Source of the DNA: Escherichia coli
Lineage (GTDB): Bacteria > Pseudomonadota > Gammaproteobacteria > Enterobacterales > Enterobacteriaceae
Direction: 5' to 3' (one strand)
Assembly: GCF_050920415.1 (NCBI RefSeq)
Contig: NZ_CP169309.1
Length of the DNA: 64,000 bases
Below the pieces are notes generated by a model that was not told the origin of the DNA, ran no database searches, and saw nothing but the letters and a program-made list of their open reading frames with translations. Both the position numbers and the translations under genes were made by a program. Positions 13,462-18,352 of this stretch are shown here, piece by piece (the first letter of the stretch is position 1; each line of letters opens with the position of its first letter).

Positions 13462-14580
13462 CTAGCTGGCCGGGAACATAACTAACAAAACGTATCCCAC
13501 CAGCGCCGCCCACAACAGCATCGGTATTGAATAGAGATGGAAACGCCACCAGATACGGCGATCGTTTGCCATCCGTAACGCAATCAAATTTGCCAGCGAT
13601 CCGGGTAATAAACCAAAGCCACCCACGTTTACCGCCCATGCCAGTAATAAAGACGGTGGCACATAATTGAGCAGCAAAATCGTGCTCGGCACGTTACTGA
13701 TCACCTGCGATAAACCAATTGCCGTTAACCATAATCCGGGTTCGGATAAATGGCTCACATTGCTCAACACGCCCTGCAAAGCTGGCAGTTGGGTCAGCAA
13801 ATGGACGTCGATAAACATCGCCATAAATACCAGCAGCAGAGTCCAGTCCACGCTGATCACCACGCGACGAGCCAGCAGCGCAAAGCCCGCCGCTACAATC
13901 ACCAGTCCCCACAGCTCTTGTTTTAACTCCAGCGCCGTCAGAAAGACGATATACAGCCCCAGACAACTCCACACCAGCCGCGGTTTCCACTCAGGTGTTT
14001 GCGCCCCCGTATGATATTGCAGCGCCTTTCCAGGGAAACAACACCAGCACAGTAGCAGGAGTGTCAGCATCATTGCGCCAGCCAGCGGTGCCATTTGGGC
14101 AATAAACCCGGCAAACGAAAGACCAGAACGACCCCAGATAAGAATATTTTGCGGGTTGCCAATCGGCGTCAGTAGCGAACCCGCATTGACTGCCAGCGCC
14201 TCAAAAATAATCAGTCGATTAACCGGGATCTCACACAGTCTTTTTAGTGTGATTGTCAGCGGAACAACAATAAACAGCGCGACATCGTTGGTCAGAAATG
14301 TTGAAAGCAACGCCGCCGCCAGCACCATAAACATTGCCAGCCGACGCTCAGTAGCAAAGCGGCGCACCATTTTGCGCCCCAGCACATCAAAATAACCGCT
14401 TAACTCCACACCTTTGGTCAGCAGCATCAGGCCACTGAGGGTGATGATAGTGTGCCAGTCGATAGCAGCAAGCCAGGATTTCGGTGCAAAGGGAACGAAA
14501 AAACTTAATCCGATGCCAACAAGAATTAATAACTGAAAAAAGCGATCGCCTTGTAGCGTGCGTAAAAAAGGCAGGCTCAT
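13462..14580 (-). CDS. ybiR: Inner-membrane transporter, ArsB/NhaD-like permease
   Basis: 372-aa highly hydrophobic ORF; start overlaps mntR stop (operon arrangement). Confidence 0.88.
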
Positions 14581-15044
14581 TTGGCACCGTGTTTCTGGGT
14601 AAACAAACGAAAGGCATCCAGCGTCTCTTCACTGACATGGTGCTCCATGCCTTCCGCGTCGCGACGAGCGATTTCCGGGCTGACGCCCAACACCAACAAG
14701 AAATTTTCGACTATCTGATGTCGCTCGCGGCTTTCCTGCGCCAGTTTCTCTCCTTCTGCCGTTAAAAACACGCCACGCCAGGGGATCATTTCAATCAGCC
14801 CCATGGTTGCCAGTCGTTTGAGCATTTTAGCCACCGTCGGTTGCGAAACGCCCAGACGAGCAGCCATGTCCACCTGACGAGCTTCCCCCACTTCCCTGAT
14901 CAAGTCAGAAATCAGCTCAACGTAATCATCAATAAGCTCGCGCCGGTGTGCCTCTCTGACCTGGCGGAACCCTTCAACGTGCTCTTCCACATTCACTAAC
15001 TGCGTCACTTTTTTTGCTGTTGGCGTACCTGCGCGACGACTCAT
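14577..15044 (-). CDS. mntR: Manganese-responsive transcriptional regulator (DtxR family)
   Basis: 155-aa ORF with N-terminal HTH and DtxR-like metal-binding C-terminus. Confidence 0.93.
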
Positions 15045-15149
15045 TGTGCTTCCTCATTATGGTGACGCATACATAGCGTTCTCATTTCGTGCGCACATTG
15101 TAAACCAGAGTTGCGAAGGTACAAAAAATTAACGTTTTAGCAATAGCTA

Positions 15150-15160
15150 TATAATATAGC
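15150..15160. repeat. Left copy of the 11-bp direct repeat tataatatagc (putative attL core)
   Basis: Exact 11-bp match to 47440..47450; host-like sequence to the left, AT-rich foreign sequence to the right. Confidence 0.6.
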
Positions 15161-15409
15161 TTTGGACCCCAATAAAAACCAAATGAAAACAATTAATTAT
15201 GAAAGAAATATCATTGTAATGTCGCAAGAATGTCGCAGAATTTTGAATTTTACATCAAACAGAAATCTTACATAAGTCGTCGAAAAGGAAAACTACCAAT
15301 ATCTTTTCGGTGTTTCCTTTCCCCAAATGGAATTTTTCCTGTTATGCTAATATTCGTTTTAAGGTGTTGATAACTAACATTACACAAAGCAATTAGAACG
15401 GATACTAAC

Positions 15410-16984
15410 ATGGCTAAAAACGCAAAAAACGAGAAACCAAAAAAGTTAGCTTATAGAATAAAAAGTATTAATATTGAAAAATTAAAAGGTATAAATAACT
15501 GCCCTATTTCCTTCCCAGCAGACAGGTCTGTAACTGCTATAATGGGAATTAATGGTTCAGGTAAATCAACAATATTGCACGCTCTATCATGTGTTTTCAA
15601 ACCCAAAGAAAAATCATCCCAAGAAAATAATAGATTTTCTGACTTCTTTACCCCTCACAATGAAAATAACTGGCAAGATAGTAAATTCTCAGTAAAATTT
15701 CGAGCGGGAGAGATAAAAAACAATGGTAATAAAGTCTTTTTTGAAGAAATAGATAATGAAGAAAAGAAAGATATTGTTTATGGCAAGGATAAAAGGTGGA
15801 AACCAGTTTACGCAAGAAGACTTGAAAGAGAATCTATATATATAGGATTACAAAATCTTGCAACGTTAGCTGACAATACAGGAGCATCAAGATACTCAGA
15901 ATATGAAAGAGTAGATATTTATGATAAAGATATAAAGAATCAAATGATATTAGCTCTGAATAAAATCTTAGATGCAGATTACAACGATTTGTTTGAATGC
16001 CGCACCATTAAGGGAAACAAAAAATTCATAGGCATGGTTAAAAACGGCATTGAGTATACAGAACATACTATGGGTGCTGGAGAAAAGAGAGTCTTTGAGA
16101 TAGTTAAAAATGTTTATAATGGAAAGTTAATGCCCAATGGTTTTCTAATCATTGATGAAATAGATGTTTTGCTACATGAAAGAGCTTTTCATGAATTAAT
16201 TAATTTTCTTATCGAAGAAAGCAAGTCTATGTGTTTTGAGGTTGTTTTCACAACACATAGAGAATCCATAATAAAGTTTAAAAATCAAATCAATATAGTA
16301 AGTATATGGAACATAGGGAATGGAATAGAGGCTTATCCCGGCGTTTCTGCGGATGCTCTTCGACAGATATCCAATGTAGAACCTGATATGGTCAATGTGT
16401 TTGTAGAAGACAACTTAGCAAAAACAGCACTAAATATTTTAGTTGAAAGTGAAGGTATGAATGAACAAGTTGATATCTCGCTTTTTGGTTCGGCTGAGAA
16501 TTCAGCTGTAATTTTGTCAGGACTTAAATTAACTGGCAAACGAATTGATACAAGCCTGGCAATTTTAGACGGTGATTACTATATTACCCTCCCTGAAAAG
16601 ACCAAAATGGTTGATAGAGTGTTATCTGGAACAGATAAAAAAGTAGAAAAAAAAGAAGTCTTATCAAGAATATTCCAATTCAATTTAGATGTGACTGACG
16701 TCAAAGGCTCTCCAGAAAAAAACCATCGTGATTGGTTTGAATCTATAGACGAAAACAATATTTCGGAAAATGATAAGACAATGTTTCTTAACCTGAAAAA
16801 ACATTCTACAAGTATTGGTGCTTTAACTGATTATCATGAATATTATCCAGAGTTAGCTCGAAGGTCAAAATTAGATAATATTGAGTACAAAGTTTTGAAT
16901 TATATTAGTAAGTATAGTAATAAATGGGATTTTTACATAAATGATATTAGAAATGAAATAAAAAAAGCAATTGCAGCGATCTAA
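15410..16984 (+). CDS. ABC-type (AAA_21/AAA_15-like) ATPase fused to a C-terminal Toprim/DUF4435-like domain; OLD-family or fused-PARIS-like candidate defence protein
   Basis: Walker A GINGSGKST, signature-like GAGEKR, Walker B LIIDEIDVLLHE, H-loop TTH; C-terminal half has VFVEDN and ILDGDY resembling Toprim E and DxD; about 30 percent GC; own terminator. Confidence 0.6.
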   Translation: MAKNAKNEKPKKLAYRIKSINIEKLKGINNCPISFPADRSVTAIMGINGSGKSTILHALSCVFKPKEKSSQENNRFSDFFTPHNENNWQDSKFSVKFRAGEIKNNGNKVFFEEIDNEEKKDIVYGKDKRWKPVYARRLERESIYIGLQNLATLADNTGASRYSEYERVDIYDKDIKNQMILALNKILDADYNDLFECRTIKGNKKFIGMVKNGIEYTEHTMGAGEKRVFEIVKNVYNGKLMPNGFLIIDEIDVLLHERAFHELINFLIEESKSMCFEVVFTTHRESIIKFKNQINIVSIWNIGNGIEAYPGVSADALRQISNVEPDMVNVFVEDNLAKTALNILVESEGMNEQVDISLFGSAENSAVILSGLKLTGKRIDTSLAILDGDYYITLPEKTKMVDRVLSGTDKKVEKKEVLSRIFQFNLDVTDVKGSPEKNHRDWFESIDENNISENDKTMFLNLKKHSTSIGALTDYHEYYPELARRSKLDNIEYKVLNYISKYSNKWDFYINDIRNEIKKAIAAI

Positions 16985-16991
16985 ACCTCAT

Positions 16992-17020
16992 AAAAGGCGT
17001 AATTTATACGCCTTTTTTTA
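16992..17020. terminator. Rho-independent terminator after the ATPase gene
   Basis: aaaggcgta...tacgccttt stem followed by a run of T. Confidence 0.75.
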
Positions 17021-17181
17021 AGGTTTAAATTATAGTTGCTAATTTCTACTCTTTGTTCCCTCTGTTCGTGCACGTTTCAGGTAGTAAGCTCTCCATCGAA
17101 CCATAGAGATTGAACGCTTTGATTTTTTTTTACATACTGTCTGAAGCTCATTTACTAAGTATTGATAGTCAGGATGACAAC

Positions 17182-17808
17182 ATGACCTCCTACGATGAAC
17201 TTAAAGAATGCATCCGCCTTGAAGTCATTGGCCATGACAAATCCTTTTCATGGCGTAAAGCGTTACTTCGTACCCGACGCAACCAGAAGAAGCACTTCCT
17301 GTTCTGGTGGCGTATCGCTTCATGGCTCTATGGCCAGAATAGTAAGTTCAAAAAGCGCATTGCCCGCAGAATTGAAAACCGCCTCAAGTACCTGCATAGC
17401 GTTGATATTTCGCTGTCATGCAAAATCGGCAAGGGTTTAAACATTGCTCATCTGAACGGTATTGTCATTACTGACAATTGCGTGATTGGTGATTTCGCCG
17501 ACCTGAAGCAAGGCATCACCATAGGGTTACGCACCGACAGTGCCGACGCGATGATAGTCATTGGTGATCATGTTGATATTGGCTGTAATTCGTCCATTCT
17601 GGGCGGCAAGGTTACGATCGGAAACAATGTCACCATTGGGGCGCATTCACTGGTACTTCAGAACATCCCCAGCGACACCGTTTATAAAAACAAGATCACG
17701 CCGGTGTATACATCCAAACTACCGCAGCAGGAATATCAGGAAAATCGGCCTTTTGTCACTGGCAAGGCGATAAAAGAAGCGTCCCGTTCCGCAGAAGCGG
17801 TGCTGTAA
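17182..17808 (+). CDS. Hexapeptide-repeat (left-handed beta-helix) acetyltransferase, serine/sugar O-acetyltransferase-like
   Basis: Tandem hexapeptide repeats (GIVITDNCVIGD, VIGDHVDIGCNSSILGGKVTIGNNVTIGAHSLV); start chosen at ATG 17182 with AGGA RBS, alternative start at 17110; AT-rich. Confidence 0.65.
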   Translation: MTSYDELKECIRLEVIGHDKSFSWRKALLRTRRNQKKHFLFWWRIASWLYGQNSKFKKRIARRIENRLKYLHSVDISLSCKIGKGLNIAHLNGIVITDNCVIGDFADLKQGITIGLRTDSADAMIVIGDHVDIGCNSSILGGKVTIGNNVTIGAHSLVLQNIPSDTVYKNKITPVYTSKLPQQEYQENRPFVTGKAIKEASRSAEAVL

Positions 17809-18186
17809 TTTCGCTGAACAAATTTCAGTTATGAAGATTGCATAAATTTACGTGCAGCCCGCGCCAGCTCTTACAAGCGGGCTAATCTCTATAATGTCTG
17901 GCTTATCTCCCAACGATCCACGAACACCGCCTAAAATATAATTTTCCCTTTATTATCTGTGCGTTATGATTTTACACCGATCCTTAACAGATCCTCTTTA
18001 CTGAAAAAAATGAAATTTCTTTCAATCATTTCAGTTCCTGTTCTCCGCAAAGCCGCCAGTAATGGTGCGGTCTGGCGCTCTGGTTTGTAGAAAAATAAAA
18101 CTGAAAAAATTTCCAGATCCAGAAACCGCAGGCGGGTGCGGTGTAGCGCCGTTTTTGTCTGCGAAAGATTTATTTTGTCGGCGCAT

Positions 18187-18230
18187 CGCAGCGCCAGCGC
18201 AGCGCCAGCGCAGCGCCAGCGCAGCGCCAT
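18187..18230. repeat. Four tandem copies of an 11-bp GC-rich unit (cgcagcgccag)
   Basis: Read directly: cgcagcgccag x3 then cgcagcgccat, in a noncoding spacer between the cargo and the last phage gene. Confidence 0.8.
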
Positions 18231-18352
18231 GCGCACGATCTTTTATGTGTGTTGCGTTGGGTTAATTTGTTGCCTGAAGTGCTGAGGGCGCGTTCTGCTG
18301 CGTCTGAGGAAGGGTATGAAAAAGCCCGCATTATGCGGGCGTGTTGTCATGG

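Follow-up and report, generated by a model that had tools for sequence, protein, structure and literature searches.

The slot between the left attachment site of a prophage and the phage tail genes in Escherichia coli holds two neighbouring genes, one for a protein with an ATPase head and a Toprim domain and one for a hexapeptide-repeat acetyltransferase. Do these genes form one defence system, or are they separate items of prophage cargo? The initial annotation described them as a two-gene AT-rich cassette and could not place the pairing in any named system. We analysed the window, that is the whole 64,000-nucleotide stretch of E. coli DNA, and conclude, with a probability of about 0.82, that the slot holds two independent modules juxtaposed by recombination: a single-gene defence ATPase of the HEC-04/IbfA type and a phage acetyltransferase.

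The prophage and its cargo slot

The window carries a P2-family (Peduoviridae, Quadragintavirus-like) prophage of about 32 kb, inserted between mntR and mntS. Chromosomal homology to other E. coli genomes stops at about 15163 (blastn). An exact-repeat search for the att sites found nothing beyond a chance 13-mer, and an imperfect 15-bp core, GCT[A/T]TATAATATAGC, emerged from local alignment of the two junctions. The attL core (AGCTATATAATATAGC region, unstranded) lies at 15146..15160 and its partner, the attR core, at 47436-47450; the two are identical at 14 of 15 positions. Both open reading frames of the initial annotation were recovered on the plus strand, one at 15410-16984 (524 amino acids) and one in frame and ending at 17808, and they lie where it had placed them, with mntR/attL on one side and the prophage tail genes on the other.

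A tandem pair, AATGTCGCAAG-AATGTCGCAGA, is present at 15218..15241 (plus strand), where Tandem Repeats Finder reports 2.3 copies of an 11-nt period. We infer that these are probably integrase arm-type sites. A TGTCGCA-like pair stands at a constant distance from the core in all mntR-side prophage junctions examined, irrespective of the cargo, with one base differing in some of the junction copies. The variable cargo slot starts immediately past the tandem TGTCGCA repeats, inside attL. Its right-hand conserved anchor lies at 17979..18204 (unstranded; blastn) and is common to related prophages regardless of their cargo. Homology to the compared loci L001, L003-L007, L009 and L010 picks up again at 17912-18000 (blastn).

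The slot is a defence hotspot inside attL where defence genes swap, and the locus overall is an ordinary prophage cargo hotspot. Rousset and colleagues reportedly described, in 2022, defence hotspots in P2-like phages and P4-like satellites. The present slot resembles these in having a fixed P2-family position at which unrelated genes interchange, here a HEC-04-like ATPase and in related prophages a retron-type reverse transcriptase, PDC-S64 or genes without assignment. It differs from the P2 old/tin and Z/fun sites in its place inside attL, beyond the putative arm-type repeats of a Quadragintavirus-like genome.

Composition and the junction between the genes

The ATPase gene has a GC content of 31.5% (GC3 24.8%), whereas the acetyltransferase gene has 47.7% (GC3 56%), near the 50.8% of the remaining prophage. 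The two genes are therefore 16 points apart and do not share the low GC that had been ascribed to both. The AT-rich tract, 15045-17181, consists of the ATPase gene and its own flanks and leaves the acetyltransferase gene outside.

Nucleotide comparisons divide the slot into two modules, both on the plus strand. The ATPase module (15242..17080, blastn boundaries) is about 32% GC and has its own upstream region and terminator; the Enterobacter locus L010 aligns to window positions 14905-17017, with its next match from 17912. The acetyltransferase module (17081..17941), which includes flanking sequence of its own on both sides of the gene, is 92.6% identical in nucleotides to phage ESSI2_ev015 over 861 bp, and this homology begins at 17081 (blastn). 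The supposed cassette thus dissolves into modules of unlike GC that are each found alone in the same slot.

The most likely start codon of the acetyltransferase is ATG 17182, which has AGGA 8 nt upstream and gives 208 amino acids. RefSeq gives a 627-nt gene in the closest genome, and close homologues begin MTSY. With this start the intergenic gap is 197 bp; the earlier figure of 125 bp holds only with TTG 17110.

A hairpin with a U-run, resembling an intrinsic terminator, lies 3' of the ATPase gene at 16992..17019 (plus strand). It has the form AAAAGGCGUA-AUUUA-UACGCCUUUU and folds at -19.7 kcal/mol (z = -7.4), a value equalled by none of 200 shuffles. A consensus terminator scan made no call for the hairpin behind the ATPase gene, and direct folding found it. 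The terminator noted in the initial annotation, along with its caution about separate transcription, is borne out. The terminator may be bidirectional in action, because an A-run stands ahead of the hairpin. A promoter scan of the region returned 12 sites against 10.5 in shuffled sequence, which is no excess. A candidate promoter, TTGAAC-N17-CATACT, was read by eye alone upstream of the acetyltransferase gene. The difference in GC and the terminator between the genes argue for their independence.

The acetyltransferase and its family

The second gene (17182..17808, plus strand) encodes a CysE/WcaB-clade hexapeptide O-acetyltransferase of 208 amino acids, as assigned by NCBIfam, Pfam, PHROGs and PDB profiles. 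The protein is predicted to be a cytoplasmic, trimeric beta-helix enzyme, and its gene is a common phage gene. A four-helix N-terminal domain occupies residues 1-71, and D75 and H90 are the putative catalytic residues. Hexapeptide repeats together with this Asp-His dyad place the protein in the hexapeptide-repeat acyltransferase superfamily. Pfam matches Hexapep (9e-4), and a profile search of the PDB matches more than 100 beta-helix acyltransferases, with CysE the best; both agree with the left-handed beta-helix named in the initial annotation. The structure model has a mean pLDDT of 68.8, with low confidence in the beta-helix part, and Foldseek searches with it gave weak CysE matches (best E 0.035) that add nothing beyond the sequence. 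PHROGs assigns the protein to phrog_2154 (1.4e-55), with the function label 'unknown function'. PADLOC has no model for it, and the literature yielded nothing relevant on hexapeptide acetyltransferases acting in defence.

The gene is found in several settings. A similar gene is present in 12 of 5426 complete E. coli genomes. It occurs alone directly behind mntR/att in E. coli on at least 24 contigs, and most E. coli carriers are without the ATPase. In phage ESSI2_ev015 it follows int-attP directly, again with no ATPase, and in one genome it adjoins a retron-type reverse transcriptase rather than the ATPase. Among 80 viral loci, 46 have the gene convergent to a tail-fibre assembly gene, 10-60 bp from the 3' end of that gene; others adjoin a baseplate gene or an integrase, and for 50 of the 80 a contig end is no more than 3 kb away. 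In some phages it stands directly 3' of genes for the tape measure and tail proteins and is co-directional with them.

Its recurrence beside tail-fibre genes or integrases suggests an O-acetyltransferase of lysogenic conversion. Expressed from the prophage, the enzyme would O-acetylate a sugar or a cell-envelope glycan precursor, and the altered surface receptors would lead to lysogenic conversion or superinfection exclusion. We put this proposal, which is drawn by analogy, at slightly short of even odds. An unrelated lysogenic-conversion gene was rightly among the options of the initial annotation, the role itself being a prediction. As a family, phrog_2154 may tentatively be seen as a widespread class of prophage O-acetyltransferases that are linked to tail fibres and act by remodelling the receptors of phages.

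The analogy is with NeuO, the polysialic-acid O-acetyltransferase of prophage CUS-3, which acts on the K1 capsule and sets the precedent of a prophage enzyme able to alter a surface glycan and phage sensitivity (PMC3046976, PMC13001214). Both are prophage-borne, cytoplasmic hexapeptide-repeat O-acetyltransferase morons, and the likeness is one of function only. NeuO probably belongs to another beta-helix subfamily, as the window protein matches CysE-type enzymes best; NeuO is absent among the 60 best of its 110 PDB profile matches, a list headed by CysE enzymes. Unlike neuO, the window gene has no phase-variable heptanucleotide repeats at its 5' end.

A doubtful but still serious alternative is that the family acts away from the host surface, on a small molecule or xenobiotic, on a protein of the phage or of the host, or, in the lineage that has lost the dyad, in a non-enzymatic role linked to the tail fibre. 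Of the 80 viral copies, 44 retain the acid-His dyad, and one large lineage (36 of 80 loci) has T75/Y90 in place of both residues. This lineage is widely maintained, and its loss of the dyad fits poorly with the view that phrog_2154 acts as an enzyme only. The gene was not seen within a polysaccharide cluster in the contexts examined, its sites being prophage edges or isolated chromosomal positions. The tight juxtaposition to tail-fibre assembly genes, and the same-strand copies behind tail genes, would also suit an action off the surface. However, most loci have the gene convergent to tfa, and like a moron it sits at the edges of prophages; the families nearest to it O-acetylate serine or sugars, and all 44 copies outside the single lineage retain the dyad.

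Database annotations imply another role, that of a true serine O-acetyltransferase raising cysteine synthesis in the lysogen as an auxiliary metabolic gene. RefSeq gives the protein this name, and its top PDB and NCBIfam matches are CysE enzymes. The catalytic beta-helix domain does stand behind helices as in CysE, WcaB and EpsC, with the dyad positions kept. In CysE structures an Asp before the catalytic His and an Arg-His pair bind the substrate serine. In the window protein the DH motif and the GDRHP loop of CysE are aligned to AH and DAM, so that the equivalents of D157, R192 and H193 are Ala, Ala and Met, and both the Asp and the Arg-His pair are missing. Pfam finds no SATase_N domain, only Hexapep, and the gene does not lie in a cys locus. 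TIGR01172 has a cut-off of 210.65 bits, of which the protein reaches 82, and a second CysE score is 60.9 against 397. A serine O-acetyltransferase is therefore improbable. True CysE was rejected for this protein, the score, domain and residue tests all standing against it. The label 'serine acetyltransferase', used everywhere for phrog_2154, is probably a misnomer; published papers leave the phage 'serine acetyltransferase' unexplained.

The NCBIfam matches are EpsC (3.5e-25), CysE (4.6e-23) and WcaB (3.6e-18), all under their cut-offs. The protein does not qualify as EpsC (88.7 bits against 150) or WcaB (65.6 against 194.65), and its gene does not lie in a polysaccharide locus. A grouping with surface-polysaccharide enzymes, which the initial annotation had named as a point against a joint system, is thus seen weakly, in the identity of the best families and not in their thresholds.

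The ATPase-Toprim gene

The first gene (15410..16984, plus strand) encodes an ABC ATPase-Toprim protein of 524 amino acids, assigned to the HEC-04/IbfA family from PADLOC, Pfam, alignment, AlphaFold and Foldseek. Its motifs and predicted fold indicate a full-length fusion of an ABC-type ATPase head, similar to SMC and Rad50, with a Toprim nuclease domain, the catalytic motifs being intact. The head has Walker A at G46-S53 (Lys52), the signature at M221/A223-E225, Walker B at D249-E250 and the H-loop at T282-E285; the Toprim motifs are E333 and D387-G388-D389. Walker A, Walker B, E333 and D387/D389 are invariant across 29 homologues, down to 29% identity. Pfam matches SMC_N and AAA_15 at residues 17-294 and detects no Toprim family in the protein, OLD-like_TOPRIM included. 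The AlphaFold model (pLDDT 81.8) contains a beta-alpha-beta-alpha-beta unit at 328-404, with E333 behind strand 1 and D387xD389 behind strand 3. Foldseek matches the model to Rad50, SMC, PtuA, OLD and GajA, with retron PtuA/Eco8 among the structural neighbours. These matches have high probability and low TM, because the protein is multi-domain; they back an ABC fold and an OLD/GajA-like architecture and do not rank the families. The OLD/PARIS-like ATPase-Toprim call of the initial annotation was therefore sound as to architecture. PHROGs assigns the protein to phrog_3940.

The best PADLOC match is HEC-04 (E 3.1e-33). Residues 9-410 align to profile positions 17-394 of 494, which leaves the C-terminal 110 amino acids outside the match. 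HEC-04, Hma-embedded candidate 04, is a validated single-gene defence and an IbfA homologue; its defence requires the Walker A lysine (K62A) and the Toprim triad (E319A/D375A/D377A), and it is toxic when over-expressed (Payne et al., bioRxiv 10.1101/2024.01.29.577857). IbfA of IncI plasmids behaves as an abortive infection protein (PMC12111858). Like them, the window ATPase is a single polypeptide of about 520 amino acids, with an ABC ATPase head at the N terminus and a Toprim domain at the C terminus, and its gene travels by itself on mobile elements. It also has the Walker A lysine (K52) and a Toprim triad, E333/D387/D389, corresponding to E319/D375/D377 of HEC-04. It differs in lying in a P2-family prophage, neither Hma-embedded nor on an IncI plasmid, and in its last 110 or so residues. 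BLASTP against a 518-residue IbfA-type protein of an IncI plasmid gives 28% identity (17-522 against 14-503, E 1e-49); the plasmid protein was called IbfA from its length (1557 bp) and its ProQ/FinO neighbour, as described in PMC12111858.

The architecture that had seemed to fall outside any named system can thus be placed: the ATPase is, by its sequence, a new member of the known single-gene HEC-04/IbfA anti-phage family, with a predicted role in defence. In the proposed mechanism, the ATPase head would sense a phage cue and license the Toprim domain for cutting of nucleic acid, which would result in abortive infection.

The protein also resembles OLD (P2 Old, Class 1) and GajA in joining an ABC ATPase to a Toprim domain, with 6p74 and 8sm3 as structural neighbours, and like P2 old it is cargo of a P2-family phage. 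The PADLOC Old and GajA profiles, however, match just the first 60-100 or so residues of the ATPase. The best Old stretch is 15-72 (E 2.5e-11), so the protein does not match the OLD Class 1 profile over its full length.

The homologues are spread over many taxa and mobile elements and are solitary, of constant length and with all motifs invariant. In complete E. coli genomes the gene is present in 1 of 5426, and that genome also has the pair. Without the acetyltransferase, the ATPase occupies the same slot in a 90%-identical E. coli relative and, on at least 24 contigs, in Enterobacter (85.7% amino acid identity). A mobilisable plasmid of 5.4 kb has one homologue as its only cargo, another is present in a P4-like satellite, and others lie in plasmid defence islands. 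Gene neighbourhoods are entirely different from one homologue to another, with no conserved partner gene. Members of the family pass singly between prophages, P4-like satellites and small plasmids.

It is very unlikely that the ATPase is instead a non-functional orphan, left without its partner, from a multi-gene system (retron type I-B, PARIS AriA/AriB, Gabija GajA or Septu PtuA): the secondary PADLOC matches to ATPase-Toprim_I-B (E 1.3e-20), AriA, PtuA and GajA and the structural likeness to retron PtuA/Eco8, OLD and GajA would allow it, but the top match is a single-gene system, the module has no second open reading frame, and the homologues are solitary, with a constant length and invariant motifs. 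A search for a retron-type reverse transcriptase over the whole window (tblastn) gave no match better than E 1.2, and Rfam found nothing above gathering scores in the region. The AriA profiles match in part (2.2e-11), there is no second open reading frame in the module for AriB, and AriAB is absent among the 25 best PADLOC matches of the ATPase. No helicase open reading frame of the GajB kind lies between 15045 and 18352. The retron type I-B effector, PARIS, Gabija and Septu were rejected for the ATPase by these partner-gene tests.

One system or two modules

The co-occurrence of the two families bears most directly on the question. None of 79 ATPase-family loci from species-representative genomes has a phrog_2154 acetyltransferase within 7 kb; two of the 79 have weak generic hexapeptide matches, 3-4 kb off. 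Conversely, none of the 80 viral acetyltransferase loci has the ATPase. The 79-locus genome-contig set and the 80-locus viral-contig set were gathered with alignment queries, since a single-sequence ATPase query of genome contigs returned nothing useful and a single-sequence acetyltransferase query of viral contigs found one locus. The homologues are thus unlinked elsewhere, an outcome that the initial annotation had named as fatal to a joint system. The pair itself is shared by a trio of close relatives, namely the window, H1 (a RefSeq genome) and P0001. The adjacency is real, yet rare.

That the two genes are one new two-gene defence system, with the acetyltransferase as effector, modifier or immunity partner, has very little left in its favour. 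The genes stand side by side and point the same way in the window, in H1 and in a single draft genome, and their slot is a defence hotspot. Against this, either gene is also found alone in the same slot, the GC contents are unlike, a strong terminator stands between the genes, and HEC-04 and IbfA function as single genes. The counts of 0/79 and 0/80 largely refute a two-gene system. Because each module is found alone in the same slot and the families do not co-occur, we regard the genes as two modules and not as a system.

Since the pair recurs in these relatives, it is conceivable that modules of separate origin have become functionally coupled in this E. coli lineage, as a two-component variant of the HEC-04 type. 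The target modified by the acetyltransferase could then be, for instance, a metabolite, a nucleic-acid-linked group or the ATPase-Toprim protein, whose activity would in this way be tuned or restrained. We give such coupling only a slim chance, and consider the receptor-remodelling class proposed above for phrog_2154 to be the likelier.

Two independent modules brought together by recombination remain our reading of the slot. This removes a false lead: adjacency inside a prophage cargo hotspot is no evidence of a system. The locus documents a gene of the HEC-04/IbfA type as cargo of a P2-family prophage, and defines a cargo slot, inside attL and past conserved putative arm-type repeats, in which defence genes interchange. 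As phrog_2154 is common in temperate phages and repeatedly found next to tail-fibre genes, its possible role in lysogenic conversion would be cheap to test.

Two unlinked genes in a prophage cargo slot

The ATPase-Toprim gene (15410-16984, plus strand, 524 aa) and the hexapeptide-repeat acetyltransferase gene that follows it occupy a variable cargo slot as separate modules, as blastn boundaries, GC content and co-occurrence all indicate. The initial annotation had treated them as an AT-rich cassette at 15410-17808. Both ORFs exist, they are co-oriented, and the terminator described between them is present as a hairpin with a U-run at 16992-17019 (-19.7 kcal/mol, z = -7.4); the cassette itself is unsupported. 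The low GC is not shared, being 31.5% (GC3 24.8%) in the ATPase gene versus 47.7% (GC3 56%) in the acetyltransferase gene, and the remaining prophage has 50.8%. The acetyltransferase most likely starts at the ATG at 17182, which gives 208 aa, because the RefSeq gene in the closest genome is 627 nt long, close homologues open with MTSY and an AGGA lies 8 nt upstream. The intergenic gap is therefore 197 bp and not 125 bp.

Linkage was examined by HMM searches over all six-frame ORFs of fetched loci, with query alignments of 29 ATPase and 24 acetyltransferase homologues. For the ATPase the sample was 79 loci in species-representative genomes, for the acetyltransferase 80 loci on viral contigs; flanks of up to 7 kb were included. 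The ATPase family was absent from all 80 viral loci within this flank. Two of the 79 ATPase loci, both from Bacteroidales, contained a generic hexapeptide protein 3-4 kb away, matched weakly (26-30 bits). In the set of 5426 complete E. coli genomes there is a single occurrence of the ATPase gene, against 12 of similar acetyltransferase genes. The two genes are not linked.

The prophage and its insertion site

The chromosomal part of the window carries ybiT, ldtB, ybiR and mntR (14577-15044, minus strand), and the prophage comes next. Local alignment identifies an imperfect 15-bp att core, GCT[A/T]TATAATATAGC, at 15146-15160 and again at 47436-47450, the latter copy adjoining the integrase gene (46312-47352); this spacing gives a prophage length of about 32.3 kb. 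The closest complete genome, NZ_OZ547246 (95.6% identity over the region), has a prophage that spans mntR to mntS and carries P2-family genes for integrase, CI, CII, Fil, replication endonuclease, portal, terminase and a P2-type capsid and tail. The related free phage ESSI2_ev015 is classed in Peduoviridae, Quadragintavirus; it has a different attP, which includes a tRNA-3'-end-like sequence.

Chromosomal sequence is common to all mntR-side junctions up to about 15163. Some 60-75 bp inward of the att core and shared chromosome is a tandem TGTCGCA-like pair (15218-15241), kept at every mntR-side junction whatever the cargo (also in loci L001-L007, L010, L176 and L187). The repeats, which are probably arm-type sites of the integrase, form the boundary at which the variable slot begins.

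Beyond the repeats, slot content differs from genome to genome. The ATPase and acetyltransferase genes occur together in the window and one RefSeq genome (H1); the acetyltransferase is the only occupant in nine RefSeq genomes, as well as in at least 24 other contigs. Another genome (H2) has the acetyltransferase with an opposite-strand retron-type reverse transcriptase; others have three small genes of no known kind (H15), a PDC-S64 candidate (H18) or another unknown gene (H20). By blastn, an Enterobacter locus matches the window at 14905-17017 and then jumps to 17912, and so carries the ATPase (85.7% amino acid identity) without the acetyltransferase, an arrangement found in at least 24 contigs. 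ESSI2_ev015 matches 17081-17941 only, with the acetyltransferase directly after int-attP and no ATPase. An E. coli read assembly has a 90%-identical ATPase with the baseplate gene directly downstream of it.

The slot in NZ_AP031375 (L002, 6046-7920) is occupied by an opposite-strand gene for a 254-aa retron-type reverse transcriptase (PADLOC RT_VI, 4.8e-18), together with a tRNA-3'-end-like fragment and a second TGTCGCA repeat pair; of the prophage that follows, only a deleted remnant is left. The commonest arrangement in E. coli contigs with the acetyltransferase alone (L187-L192, 5764-6432) has an opposite-strand DUF4760 gene after it. This gene is not present downstream of the acetyltransferase in the window, so that region is also variable; in the window, the intergenic region before the baseplate gene contains 4.4 copies of an 11-nt tandem repeat, CGCAGCGCCAG (18187-18235, 97% matches). 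A 497-aa ORF (44772-46265, plus strand) between the CI gene (43819-44403) and the integrase gene matches the PADLOC candidate PDC-S49 (3.4e-106) and phrog_4740. It is missing from the otherwise similar NZ_OZ547246 prophage, so the window prophage has a second cargo slot here.

The ATPase belongs with HEC-04 and IbfA

The ATPase has an SMC/RecF-type ABC head (Pfam). PADLOC ranks HEC-04 best (3.1e-33), then the retron I-B 'ATPase-Toprim' profile (1.3e-20), with partial matches to AriA, PtuA, Old and GajA. In the 29-homologue alignment the Walker A (G46-S53), Walker B (D249-E250), signature-like (M221/A223-E225) and H-loop (T282-E285) motifs are invariant down to 29% identity, as are E333 and D387-G388-D389. 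The AlphaFold model (pLDDT 81.8) contains a beta-alpha-beta-alpha-beta unit at 328-404, with E333 after strand 1 and the DxD after strand 3; as modelled, this is the Toprim arrangement. Foldseek matches are Rad50, SMC, PtuA, OLD (6p74) and GajA.

HEC-04 needs no partner gene to protect E. coli, requires its Walker A lysine and an E319/D375/D377 triad, and is toxic on induction (bioRxiv 10.1101/2024.01.29.577857). Its homologue IbfA acts against a P22-like phage by abortive infection (PMC12111858). The window ATPase aligns end to end with a 518-aa IncI-plasmid protein encoded beside ProQ/FinO (28% identity, E 1e-49); the plasmid gene is consistent with ibfA as published (PMC12111858). Because the ATPase module in the window contains no reverse transcriptase, helicase, second ORF or Rfam RNA, we assign the protein to the HEC-04/IbfA family, to which it is a new addition. 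By analogy with these relatives, an ATPase-gated Toprim nuclease would abort infection.

Relatives are carried alone in plasmid defence islands, a P4-like satellite and a small mobilisable plasmid. In the last (5464-bp Logan contigs, L184-L186) a 62%-identical homologue is the sole gene outside a backbone of relaxase, MobC, replicase and RelB/ParE. The satellite, from Kosakonia (L180-L181; Ash, DUF5375 and D5-type primase genes), carries an 84%-identical homologue, which in one contig adjoins a Gabija-like pair of OLD-Toprim ATPase and UvrD helicase. Homologues of about 810 aa (P0080, P0089, P0090, P0097, P0112, P0115) have an extra C5-cytosine DNA methyltransferase domain (PF00145), so the family may include a variant in which modification and nuclease functions are fused.

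The acetyltransferase

The acetyltransferase matches phrog_2154, 'unknown function', over its full length (1.4e-55), and PADLOC has no match for it. EpsC, CysE and WcaB rank highest in NCBIfam, each far under cut-off, and CysE enzymes lead the PDB profile search (about 1e-22). In CysE, serine is bound by the Asp ahead of the catalytic His and by an Arg-His pair in the GDRHP loop. The alignments show that the window protein retains the catalytic His (H90) and the acidic residue upstream of it (D75) and has Ala, Ala and Met in place of the three serine-binding residues; 'serine acetyltransferase' is therefore probably an over-annotation. The SATase_N domain was not found in the protein.

The acid-His dyad is kept in 44 of the 80 viral copies. 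In the other 36 (L097-L131 and L139, within the set L095-L174), one near-clonal lineage, D/E75 is changed to T and H90 to Y, which may reflect either different chemistry or a non-enzymatic role. This lineage is widespread, with intact genes that adjoin tail-fibre assembly genes.

In 46 of the 80 viral loci the 3' end of the acetyltransferase gene faces that of a convergent tail-fibre assembly gene across 10-60 bp; in others the acetyltransferase gene abuts the integrase gene or a 567-aa baseplate gene, as it does in the window. It lies less than 3 kb from a contig end in 50 of the 80. Two loci examined have it between a tape-measure/tail-protein operon and a convergent tail-fibre operon. Citrobacter phage phiNP carries it between hicAB and a tail-fibre assembly gene, a P1-like phage-plasmid has it within an exchanged tail-fibre region, and some bacterial copies are isolated chromosomal genes. 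Published papers treat the phage gene as a 'fitness' gene or leave it unexplained. Going by analogy and genomic context, the best-supported guess, at slightly under even odds, is that the enzyme O-acetylates a sugar or envelope-glycan acceptor and serves lysogenic conversion. NeuO of prophage CUS-3, which O-acetylates the K1 capsule and affects phage resistance (PMC3046976, PMC13001214), would be an analogue.

The locus is thus an ordinary prophage cargo hotspot, in which a single-gene defence of a known kind lies beside a common, uncharacterised phage acetyltransferase. The novelty that remains is the function of phrog_2154, not the gene pairing.
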